NCBI GenBank assembly: GCA_027317865.1
Contig: DAHVQG010000018.1
Span: forward strand, 1-41,856
DNA from: Bdellovibrionales bacterium
Lineage (GTDB): Bacteria; Bdellovibrionota; Bdellovibrionia; Bdellovibrionales; UBA1609
Length of the DNA: 41,856 bases
Reading direction: 5' to 3'
The notes beneath the pieces are model-generated. The model did no database searches. It had not been told where the DNA came from and saw only the letters and a list, made by a program, of their open reading frames with translations. Positions 37,213 to 41,856 of the stretch are shown in pieces (the stretch's first letter is position 1; each line of letters opens with the position of its first letter). A program made the translations under genes and the position numbers.

Positions 37213-37485
37213 TTATACCACCGGTGGAACTTTAAAGAGATTACCTAATCTTTCAGGAGCGTTTTTCATCGCTTCTTCTGCCGTTTGCACGACTTGCACT
37301 TTATCTTCGCGAAAATGAAAGGCCATATCGGTTGGGGTGATCAACGGCTCGACCTCTTTTGTGTCGATGACCTCAATTTCAGAAAAATACTTCACAATAG
37401 AACTGAGCTGCGTCTCAAACGCCTTTTCTTCATCCTCGGTCAATAAAAGCCGCGACAGTTTCGCAACGGATTGAACATCAATCAC
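37213..37485 (-). CDS. gatC: Asp/Glu-tRNA amidotransferase subunit C
   Basis: VAKLSRL, FRED, NAPE and FKVPPV motifs; AGGAG RBS; first gene of gatCAB. Confidence 0.95.
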   Translation of the reverse strand: MIDVQSVAKLSRLLLTEDEEKAFETQLSSIVKYFSEIEVIDTKEVEPLITPTDMAFHFREDKVQVVQTAEEAMKNAPERLGNLFKVPPVV

Positions 37486-37581
37486 GATTTTTTCTCCTAC
37501 TTTTGTCGGTCGTTTTATATCACCTTGTAGCGCGGCGCAAGGAGTGTCGCTTGACCCGCTCGGGTATACTATCTTTTTTAA

Positions 37582-39594
<2,013 letters not shown>

Positions 39595-39603
39595 TCGCGA
39601 AAA

Positions 39604-39798
39604 CTAGATGTGATCTGTCGTAATATCGCGAGCCATAACGGTTTTACGGCCATCCGCTTTGGCGTTTTCAATTCCTTTACGGCACAACTTTTCAACAGCT
39701 TCGCTTAAAACAGCAATCGTTTCTGCTGAAGTGTTGCAGCCGCCGCTTTCTTTTATAAACTTTTTCACTTTGCTAGTTACAACGAGTACCTCTGCCAT
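39604..39798 (-). CDS. Bacterial histone-fold protein (Bd0055/HBb-like)
   Basis: 64 aa MAEVLVVTSKVKKFIKESGGCNTSAETIAVLSEAVEKLCRKGIENAKADGRKTVMARDITTDHI; AAGGGG RBS; histone L2 signature A...GRKTV...D. Confidence 0.92.
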   Translation of the reverse strand: MAEVLVVTSKVKKFIKESGGCNTSAETIAVLSEAVEKLCRKGIENAKADGRKTVMARDITTDHI

Positions 39799-39912
39799 TT
39801 TGTTCCCCTTCTTCACATGTGTTGTTGCTACTCGGTTGTGTAAATCGTGTTGTACATAAACAACATTTATCGGTGATGGACTTAAATAAGCAATCCAAAA
39901 CCGCTGTCGCCG

Positions 39913-41409
39913 CTAAGCGTCGTTGTCGCCAATTGCCGCATCTAGCTGTTCTCGATCCGCCTTCCCGCCGGATGTCTCGCCGAAAACATCAGTAACAACT
40001 CCATTTTCAATTTGGCAAACCTTCGCGTCGCGCGCGCCACTCGCGCCGGGTTGAATCCATACGAAAGTCTTTTGCCCAATTGGCTTTTTACATTCAACGT
40101 CCGAAAACGCCGGCGACCAGGTCCCGCTGTTGAGGTGCTCAATGGGTCCGATCATTTCATGCCGAACGACGTGCGTGTGGCCGTAGACTACGCGCGAAAC
40201 ATCGGCAATAAGCCCCGTTAAAGTCAGTGTCCGCTCACGCGGCTCCTTAAATTCTTGAACTTCTGATTTTACTGACCGCGCATAAAAAAGAAAAAATGGA
40301 ATAAACAGACAAAAGGGGACAAATAACCAAAAAATAGATAATCGAAACAGATTATCCACTTGCAGAAAAACGAAATAAAGAACGAGAAGGGTGACTAATA
40401 TTAAAAACGCCCGATCTAACCATAGCTCGCGCAAAATCAGCGTCGGTCGGCTTGCCGCCGGAGCAACAAATAGCTCCCTCATCTGCCGCACAATTTTCGG
40501 TGTTGCATTGGATTTTTCAGCTATCTCTCCAATGTGATCTTCGATTCCGAGCGGATTGGCAATACTTGGACTCAGCCGATTAGCAAATGACTGAACAAGC
40601 ACGACGAGCGACCCCCAAAACCAAGTTACGATCAAGAGCGGCTCCGATCGCGCCATATATTTTAGAAAAAATTGAATGTATTGTTTCGGCGTCATAATAA
40701 AATTTGAATCAAGATGAGGGTTAAAAAACCCCATGCCGTTAATTAAATATCGCGTCGTCAATTGTCCAAATGGCAGAAGCACTTCGACGCGGTTAAATCG
40801 CACTATAAATGGCCGGATGGGATCTTGGGTAACGCAGTACGGATCGTATTGGTTGCCGTGCTCAATTAAAGTATCTTTGTTTGAAATGTAAAACCATTCG
40901 CAAAATCTTACATTCGGCCTCAGGCCCTCCGGCAAATTTAAACTTTCAAGAATTGCCGCTTGCACGGCGGGAAAGTGAAGCTCCAAATCGTGGTTACCGA
41001 TGGTGAATACCGCGCGATGGCCGTTGAGCAAAAACGCGCGAAGCCCGTTGACCCATTCCTGATGAATTTTCAAAATGGTACGGATTTTAAATTCGCTTTT
41101 TTCTTCTTGCGGATGAAGTCCGCGCCGTCGCTCAAGCCAACTGATATAGTAAGGCGGCTCATCGGGGAGCATAACGACGCTATCGAAATCGAAAATGTCT
41201 CCATTTAAGACAAGCTCGACTTTTTCTTTGCCCGCCATCTCCTGAATTTTTTCAAGAAAGCGACAAAACTCGGCGTCAAAGAAAAATCGTCTCGTTTTGT
41301 ACTTTTTCCTCAACGGGTATTTCTTGTTTTCGATCTGTTCGTCGGTCAAATGCAGATCGCTTATAATCGCGGTAAACCTAGCTTGTTCAAAATTGGGGAG
41401 CGCGTCCAT
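39913..41409 (-). CDS. Calcineurin-like metallophosphoesterase with inserted TM hairpin
   Basis: ISDLH, NGDIFD, GNHD, EHG, YGHTH and NSGTW motifs. Start taken at ATG 41409 (MDALP) because the longer ORF runs into the IS. Confidence 0.85.
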   Translation of the reverse strand: MDALPNFEQARFTAIISDLHLTDEQIENKKYPLRKKYKTRRFFFDAEFCRFLEKIQEMAGKEKVELVLNGDIFDFDSVVMLPDEPPYYISWLERRRGLHPQEEKSEFKIRTILKIHQEWVNGLRAFLLNGHRAVFTIGNHDLELHFPAVQAAILESLNLPEGLRPNVRFCEWFYISNKDTLIEHGNQYDPYCVTQDPIRPFIVRFNRVEVLLPFGQLTTRYLINGMGFFNPHLDSNFIMTPKQYIQFFLKYMARSEPLLIVTWFWGSLVVLVQSFANRLSPSIANPLGIEDHIGEIAEKSNATPKIVRQMRELFVAPAASRPTLILRELWLDRAFLILVTLLVLYFVFLQVDNLFRLSIFWLFVPFCLFIPFFLFYARSVKSEVQEFKEPRERTLTLTGLIADVSRVVYGHTHVVRHEMIGPIEHLNSGTWSPAFSDVECKKPIGQKTFVWIQPGASGARDAKVCQIENGVVTDVFGETSGGKADREQLDAAIGDNDA

Positions 41410-41414
41410 CGTCG

Positions 41415-41856
41415 TGTTAATCTCCAGGTAAAGTGACCGGTTTGTTTTCCAGCGACTTTGACCGCTTATCGGTGCTATGCCGCTATTTTTTGAGCCTTCT
41501 TTATTTTTACCAGTTTTAGTTTTCGATTGGCAAAGAAGGCATGCCAGTTGCCCCATTTATCGTAGCGAAGTTCAAGTTTTTGTTTTGCGATCGACTCGCG
41601 TATCGGATCGGCAATCATCCACTTCTCACCACCTATGCTCACGGTGTGGTCTCTACCGACAACACGATATTCTTTTACACAAAATATTTTTTCAAGATCC
41701 ATTTCCGATGGTAGCGCGCGATAGCCAGTAACAGGGTTTTGCGCAAGCACCATAGTTTTTGGGTTATGTATTTGTGGCAAATAAACCTCAGCTAGATACC
41801 GATTGGCGTCCTCAATCGTGCCGATCCCATTGAGTCTAAGTTCGGCGACAAGCCGA
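41415..41856 (-). mobile_element. Downstream end of an IS1202/ISNCY-like insertion sequence (truncated by the window)
   Basis: Terminal TGT at 41415 followed by two TCCAG-N6-TGACCG repeats (41423, 41448), then the transposase stop. Confidence 0.72.
41475..41856 (-). CDS. DDE transposase C-terminal part, IS1202/ISNCY-like
   Basis: Frame open to the window edge: RLVAELRLNGIGTIEDANRYL...YRALP...DLEKIFCVKEYRVVGRDHTVS, matching the RL..ELRL.GI.TIE.AN..L pattern of these transposases. Confidence 0.8.
   Translation of the reverse strand, partial: RLVAELRLNGIGTIEDANRYLAEVYLPQIHNPKTMVLAQNPVTGYRALPSEMDLEKIFCVKEYRVVGRDHTVSIGGEKWMIADPIRESIAKQKLELRYDKWGNWHAFFANRKLKLVKIKKAQKIAA

Follow-up and report, generated by a model that had tools for sequence, protein, structure and literature searches.

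A single-copy orthologue of the Bdellovibrio histone HBb, convergent with ligA, in an uncultured member of the Bdellovibrionales

Known histones of this type and the gene at the ligA locus

The first descriptions of bacterial histones date only from 2023-2024. Just two of them, HBb and HLp, are given as experimentally studied in PMC12701072. HBb (Bd0055) of Bdellovibrio bacteriovorus HD100 (PDB 8FVX, 8FW7, 8CMP, 9EZZ, 9F0E) is highly abundant and enriched in the nucleoid, and its gene resisted deletion (PMC10627809); it has been described as a DNA-bending dimer (PMC11317129, PMC12701072), and its bending has been likened to that of the HU/IHF family (PMC11390915). Sequence clustering defined a "bacterial dimer" category among the α3-truncated histones, in which HBb-like proteins are placed, and this category is marked by an RKTxxxD motif and conserved α1 lysines (PMC11390915). 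Relative to archaeal HMfB, HBb's α2 helix is shortened by one turn and its α3 helix is a single turn; its RD clamp is R51-D58, reinforced by D49, its dimer core is formed by L31, I35, L38, V11 and I59, and the top DNA contacts in molecular dynamics (MD) are N22, R57, S9, T53, T8, S24, K10, K12, K52 and K16 (PMC11317129). HLp of Leptospira perolatii (9QT0) and HTkC of Thermococcus kodakarensis (9F2C) are face-to-face (FtF) histones, which assemble into stable tetramers with about 60 bp of DNA wrapped, whereas HBb-type proteins are reported as strict dimers (PMC12701072). The FtF tetramer interface is placed at the C-terminal end of α2, L2 and α3; bacterial dimer histones are set apart by lacking the FtF dimer-dimer residues R48 and N52 (FtF numbering), and their α3 comprises 3-4 residues.

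The window (the whole 41,856-nucleotide stretch of DNA that was analysed) comes from an uncultured member of the same order as B. bacteriovorus, and the nearest named relatives of this host are uncultured "Bdellovibrionales" and "Pseudobdellovibrionaceae" assemblies. Its histone gene lies on the minus strand between an ATG at 39798-39796 and a TAG at 39606-39604, which bears out the 64-amino acid ORF of an earlier note made from the DNA letters, and the GRKTVMARD string singled out there is found as residues 50-58 of the translation. That note had also called the protein lysine-rich: it is indeed basic (computed pI 8.68), but with 8 K, 3 R and 9 D/E its lysine content is only moderately high. 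Likewise, the "strong" ribosome binding site is present as a Shine-Dalgarno-like motif, AAGGGG, yet its strength was overstated, as most other relatives have GGAGG at this position; the same-genus loci L004 and L008 have AAAGGGG there. An alternative GTG start at 39816 would give a protein of 70 amino acids, but among the query and the best 120 of 1033 homologues, 111 of 121 sequences are exactly 64 amino acids long with the same Met start, so the longer reading is unlikely. The features of the region are given in Table 1.

Table 1. Annotated features around the histone gene, in window coordinates
Feature	Position	Strand	Basis
ligA, NAD-dependent DNA ligase, 670 aa	37582..39594	+	Pfam DNA_ligase_aden 5.6e-95, plus OB, ZBD, HHH and BRCT
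Spacer between convergent ligA and histone stop codons, 9 bp	39595..39603	.	
Histone gene	39604..39798	-	ORF and translation; 64 codons plus TAG stop
Intergenic region upstream of histone gene, 114 bp	39799..39912	-	
Shine-Dalgarno-like AAGGGG	39805..39810	-	Direct reading; 6 nt upstream of histone ATG
Candidate promoter, TTGCTT (39893-39888), 17-nt spacer, ATAAAT (39870-39865)	39893-39865	-	Inferred by eye
Metallophosphoesterase (calcineurin-like), 547 aa	39913..41556	-	Pfam PF00149 3.5e-06

Sequence and predicted structure compared with HBb

When all PDB chains were searched with phmmer, the top match was B. bacteriovorus HBb (8fvx_A, 8cmp_A), with an E-value of 5e-27 and residues 1-64 aligned on 1-64; the two proteins have the same length and are identical at 50 of 64 residues (78%, counted from this alignment). 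The next solved proteins are HTkC (9f2c, 9e-6), HmvA (1e-3), HLp (9qt0, 0.013) and HMfA/B (0.07-0.45). The gene product clusters with HBb by these values, and the sequence evidence confirms it as an HBb orthologue of the "bacterial dimer" type of α3-truncated histones. The earlier note had proposed just such a Bd0055-like histone, and the proposal holds on the full-length phmmer match, on a Pfam histone-fold model and on the structural matches described below. Of the outcomes that it named as refuting, a lack of similarity, the absence of an HMM match and a fold other than that of histones were each checked and did not occur. The fragments of the Bd0055 sequence that it gave also agree with the PDB sequence. 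Its description of the protein as a "divergent relative" does not hold, since 78% identity to HBb and 92% to the nearest relatives are typical of an orthologue. The histone-fold model in question, CBFD_NFYB_HMF (PF00808), passes narrowly, scoring 23.1 bits where the gathering score is 21.4 (1.7 bits above) over residues 29-60 only, and the NCBIfam archaeal histone model NF043032 scores 31.8 bits, below its cut-off of 50. The last result illustrates how such histone genes still escape naming, and in public records the homologues go by names from "hypothetical protein" to "NFYB/HAP3 transcription factor subunit".

The AlphaFold2 (AF2) monomer model, based on an alignment of 36 sequences, has helices at residues 2-19 (α1), 25-48 (α2) and 56-58 (a one-turn α3) by DSSP. 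Its confidence is moderate, with a mean pLDDT of 74 and 59-61 for the other four models, but a histone fold with a shortened α2 and an α3 of only three residues is predicted, like that of HBb. When this model was compared with the PDB by Foldseek, ranks 1-5 were all HBb chains (E 4e-6 to 6e-5, TM 0.62-0.69), and below them only histones or histone-fold proteins were found among the matches listed.

All ten of the published DNA-contact residues of HBb are identical in the translation, as are the RD clamp R51-D58 and D49, and of the dimer core L31, L38, V11 and I59 are identical and the only change is I35V. The RKTxxxD motif lies within residues 49-58 (DGRKTVMARD), and the α1 lysines of the family (HMM positions 11, 13 and 17) are present as K10, K12 and K16, together with the T8-S9-K10 string. 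In a set of 111 64-amino acid sequences, which includes the query and is biased towards it, the contact, clamp and core positions are invariant or nearly so; R51, K52, T53, R57 and D58, and likewise T8, S9, K10, K12 and K16, are invariant in 111 of 111. The differences from HBb are 14 substitutions (F14, S18, G20, C21, A29, E33, V35, K37, R40, I43, N45, T60, T61 and I64), of which C21 replaces M21 and T60 and T61 lie in the C-terminal tail.

Other small DNA-binding proteins are more distant. The FtF histones HLp and HTkC have the α3-truncated fold, the RD clamp and the RKT loop in common with this protein and reach a Foldseek probability of 0.99, but their sequence similarity is far weaker than that of HBb. 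The archaeal histones HMfA and HMfB (1B67, 1A7W, 5T5K) share with it the histone fold, the L2 RKT motif and DNA contacts through L1-L2 and α1, but their sequence similarity is marginal, and the low NF043032 score and the single-turn α3 of the model both set the protein apart from HMf-type archaeal nucleosomal histones. HU/IHF family proteins (Bac_DNA_binding) are also small, basic and dimeric and bend DNA independently of sequence, traits that this histone would share if it behaves as HBb does, but their fold is unrelated to that of histones.

Distribution, selection and gene neighbourhood

The host genome assembly (2.65 Mb in 42 contigs, 99.2% complete) contains one histone-fold gene; no second one was found in it with the protein, PF00808 or PF09123 as query at E ≤ 10. 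In this it differs from B. bacteriovorus, as no longer paralogue of the Bd3044 type was found. Three genes of the HU/IHF family (G000:C33:221925-222194, C6:20102-20368 and C11:139785-140054) coexist with the histone gene, which therefore does not replace HU/IHF.

At E ≤ 1e-3, a word-based search gave 1033 homologues; identity to the query is 77-92% in the best 120. Among representatives at 50% identity, an exhaustive search found 534 homologues at this cut-off and 65 at E ≤ 1e-10. Of 41 sampled relatives, the host's own genome included, 40 have a match, and the sole miss is an assembly that is 76% complete; across the phylum, 181 of 201 evenly drawn genomes have a match. A homologue was previously reported in 67% of Bdellovibrionota genomes (PMC10627809). 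The class had been called rare in the earlier note, which is correct across bacteria as a whole but not in this phylum, where it is nearly universal among the sampled genomes. Nearly every sampled relative carries the same histone gene, so the find is an ordinary one: the identification is correct but brings no new kind of protein.

The 50%-identity representatives include many two-domain proteins of about 120-150 amino acids with tandem HBb-like folds (pseudodimers; P0122, P0123, P0131, P0132 and others), another of which is encoded at G055:C34:15075-15449, as well as N-terminally extended histone-fold proteins of 160-290 amino acids. Many relatives have a second, distant histone-fold match (34-53% identity) inside an open frame of about 150-220 amino acids, for example at G009:C1:718394-718567, G004:C32:21540-21710 and G033:C29:7126-7296; these are probably the longer paralogue of the Bd3044 type, which was reported in 37% of Bdellovibrionota genomes (PMC10627809). 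One genome of the same family (G172) has two equal-scoring histone copies on the minus strand, at C5:141979-142167 and 144366-144554, about 2.2 kb apart, which suggests a recent tandem duplication. In a 93% complete genome of the same genus, the best histone match (G001:C85:2507-2677, minus strand) covers residues 8-64 only and contains two TAA stops; either this copy is broken or the assembly is in error.

The histone gene is under strong purifying selection. Compared with the closest relative, it differs at 31.3 of 43.3 synonymous sites but at only 8.7 of 145.7 non-synonymous sites, and dN ranges from 0.06 to 0.29 over 30 comparisons, or from 0.10 to 0.29 when the closest relative is excluded, synonymous sites then being saturated; locus L031 was left out of these comparisons, as a deletion of one codon shifts its register. 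Among uncultured relatives whose genomes are small, the HBb type is thus a stable core gene, present in one copy and strongly selected.

The gene order of window positions 37213-41556 is gatC, ligA, the convergent histone gene and the metallophosphoesterase gene, and it is conserved across the order. The histone gene was correctly described beforehand as convergent with ligA, which ends 9 bp from the histone stop codon on the opposite strand. Loci from relatives of the order (31 loci) and from the wider phylum were compared (L004-L014, L018-L037 and L118-L137). In the order, ligA is convergent with the histone gene in 28 of 31 loci, the alignment ends being no more than 105 bp apart in 24 of these, and the metallophosphoesterase gene lies upstream and co-directional in 19 of 31, in another orientation in three and not seen within the flank in nine. 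The one sister-family locus of the same class also has a convergent ligA, about 1.4 kb away. Outside the class, in phylum lineages whose histones are 52-71% identical, a convergent ligA was found in none of 19 loci, and the gene order as a whole is absent around the histone gene in all 19. The pairing with ligA is thus a synteny limited to this lineage; a functional coupling of ligA and histone was considered and rejected on the same counts, and ligA and the metallophosphoesterase gene are taken as context, ligA being no part of the histone's function. By term search, the main texts of PMC10627809 and PMC11789641 contain no mention of ligase synteny.

Scans of positions 39300-40200 gave no consensus sigma-70 promoter and no intrinsic terminator, and the predicted RNA fold of 39560-39660 (minus strand) is no better than that of shuffled sequences (z 0.38). 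The candidate promoter of Table 1 is putative, on the basis of a block, CACCGATAAATGTT, that the upstream region of the histone gene has in common with one same-genus relative (locus L004). The ligA and histone transcripts, whose genes are only 9 bp apart with no detectable intrinsic terminator, may overlap. Beyond the metallophosphoesterase gene, an ORF at 41475-41855 (minus strand, 126 amino acids read) runs off the end of the window and matches no Pfam family at E ≤ 1e-3. The stretch 39000-40400 is present nearly whole in four DNA runs of one mine drainage metagenome study, one of which may be the source, and at a share of 0.38 in one wastewater metagenome run, occurrences that are not evidence of habitat. 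No RNA run is listed among those that contain the locus.

Proposed function, alternative readings and cysteine 21

By analogy with HBb, two histone chains would pair head-to-tail through their α2 helices, and the dimer would bind DNA without sequence preference by backbone and minor-groove contacts. These contacts would be made by the paired L1-L2 loops (N22, S24, K52, T53 and R57) and by the start of α1 (T8, S9, K10, K12 and K16), and binding would bend the DNA locally. The protein would then serve alongside HU/IHF as an abundant nucleoid-associated protein and, as in B. bacteriovorus, might be important for growth. Dimer-only behaviour is expected from the 78% identity to HBb, so that no nucleosome-like tetramers would be built, and no hypernucleosome is expected because HBb-type proteins are without the tetramerisation residues (PMC10627809, PMC11317129). 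We consider it likely that the single histone of this host, as the orthologue of HBb, is such a dimer, bends DNA without sequence preference and is an abundant nucleoid protein alongside HU/IHF; by the same orthology, this organism would have histone-based chromatin, as the earlier note supposed.

The DNA-binding mode of HBb is itself disputed, as an end-on sheath on straight DNA (PMC10627809) and bending (PMC11317129) have both been described, and the main competitor to the bending dimer is accordingly the same orthologue acting as a nucleohistone filament, in which dimers would stand end-on via one L1-L2 face and form a side-by-side sheath around straight DNA. This is the arrangement in the Bd0055-DNA co-crystal (PMC10627809), and every L1-L2 residue that takes part in it is conserved in this protein, but later co-crystals, tethered-particle motion, supercoil-constraint and ligase circularisation experiments and MD support bending by HBb (PMC11317129), and a later paper from the same group takes bending as the accepted mode (PMC12701072). 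A filament as the working form is for these reasons a rather unlikely reading of this protein, though the sheath may apply at high occupancy and would be compatible with bending at lower occupancy.

Two further readings would remove the protein from chromatin altogether. A subunit of a sequence-specific transcription factor of the NF-Y/HAP3 type, rather than a general chromatin protein, is what the name "NFYB/HAP3 family transcription factor subunit" of two homologues at NCBI implies, and the matching Pfam family does also cover CBF/NF-Y; these names, however, follow from the shared Pfam family and not from any experiment. The HBb match exceeds that of any other solved protein by about 20 orders of magnitude, no NF-Y chain is present among the matches listed in the PDB sequence and Foldseek results, the host genome has no partner histone-fold gene with which a heterodimer could form, and HBb touches only the DNA backbone (PMC11317129), so this reading is highly improbable. 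The reading as a chance ORF, or one without function, in the 3' region by ligA can practically be dismissed: the frame is short (64 amino acids), ORFs of similar length overlap it on both strands and the promoter and terminator scans were empty, but the idea is refuted by the 1033 homologues, by intact full-length copies in relatives and by the strong depletion of non-synonymous change, and Foldseek assigns the histone fold confidently.

The reading preferred here, a DNA-bending dimer orthologous to HBb, leaves the cysteine at position 21 to be considered, which had been described in the earlier note as a second Cys, in loop 1. The residue is real, but it is not a peculiarity of this protein, as C21 is present in 27 of 31 orthologues from relatives' genomes of the order (M, L, L and Y in the other four) and in 109 of the 111 64-amino acid sequences (the query-biased set, query included). 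In the wider family, sampled as 191 domains from 150 representatives among the matches listed, position 21 is M in 100, L in 45, F in 16 and C in 16, which has the pattern of a buried hydrophobic packing site; position 39 is C in 119 of the 191, and C21 and C39 occur jointly in three. A functional C21/C39 pair was rejected as the main reading, given this count and no covariation. The more general idea that C21, directly before N22 (which makes more DNA contacts than any other residue in the HBb simulations), and the near-invariant C39 might make DNA binding thiol-sensitive (to oxidation, metal or adduct formation) is very unlikely for the same reasons, the M/L/F/C alternation at position 21 and the rarity of the joint cysteines; were it true, most natural HBb-type histones would be thiol-sensitive in a way that the crystallised HD100 protein cannot show. 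By term search, the main texts of PMC10627809, PMC11317129 and PMC11789641 make no mention of histone cysteines ("cysteine" is found only in proteomics methods), and nothing on the sequence features of this histone family was found in PMC11789641, but Supplementary Fig. 3 of PMC10627809, cited there for Bd0055 conservation, may already show Cys21. Within the order, strain HD100 is in the minority in having M21, and this atypical residue suggests a small measure of caution in generalising from the HD100 structures.
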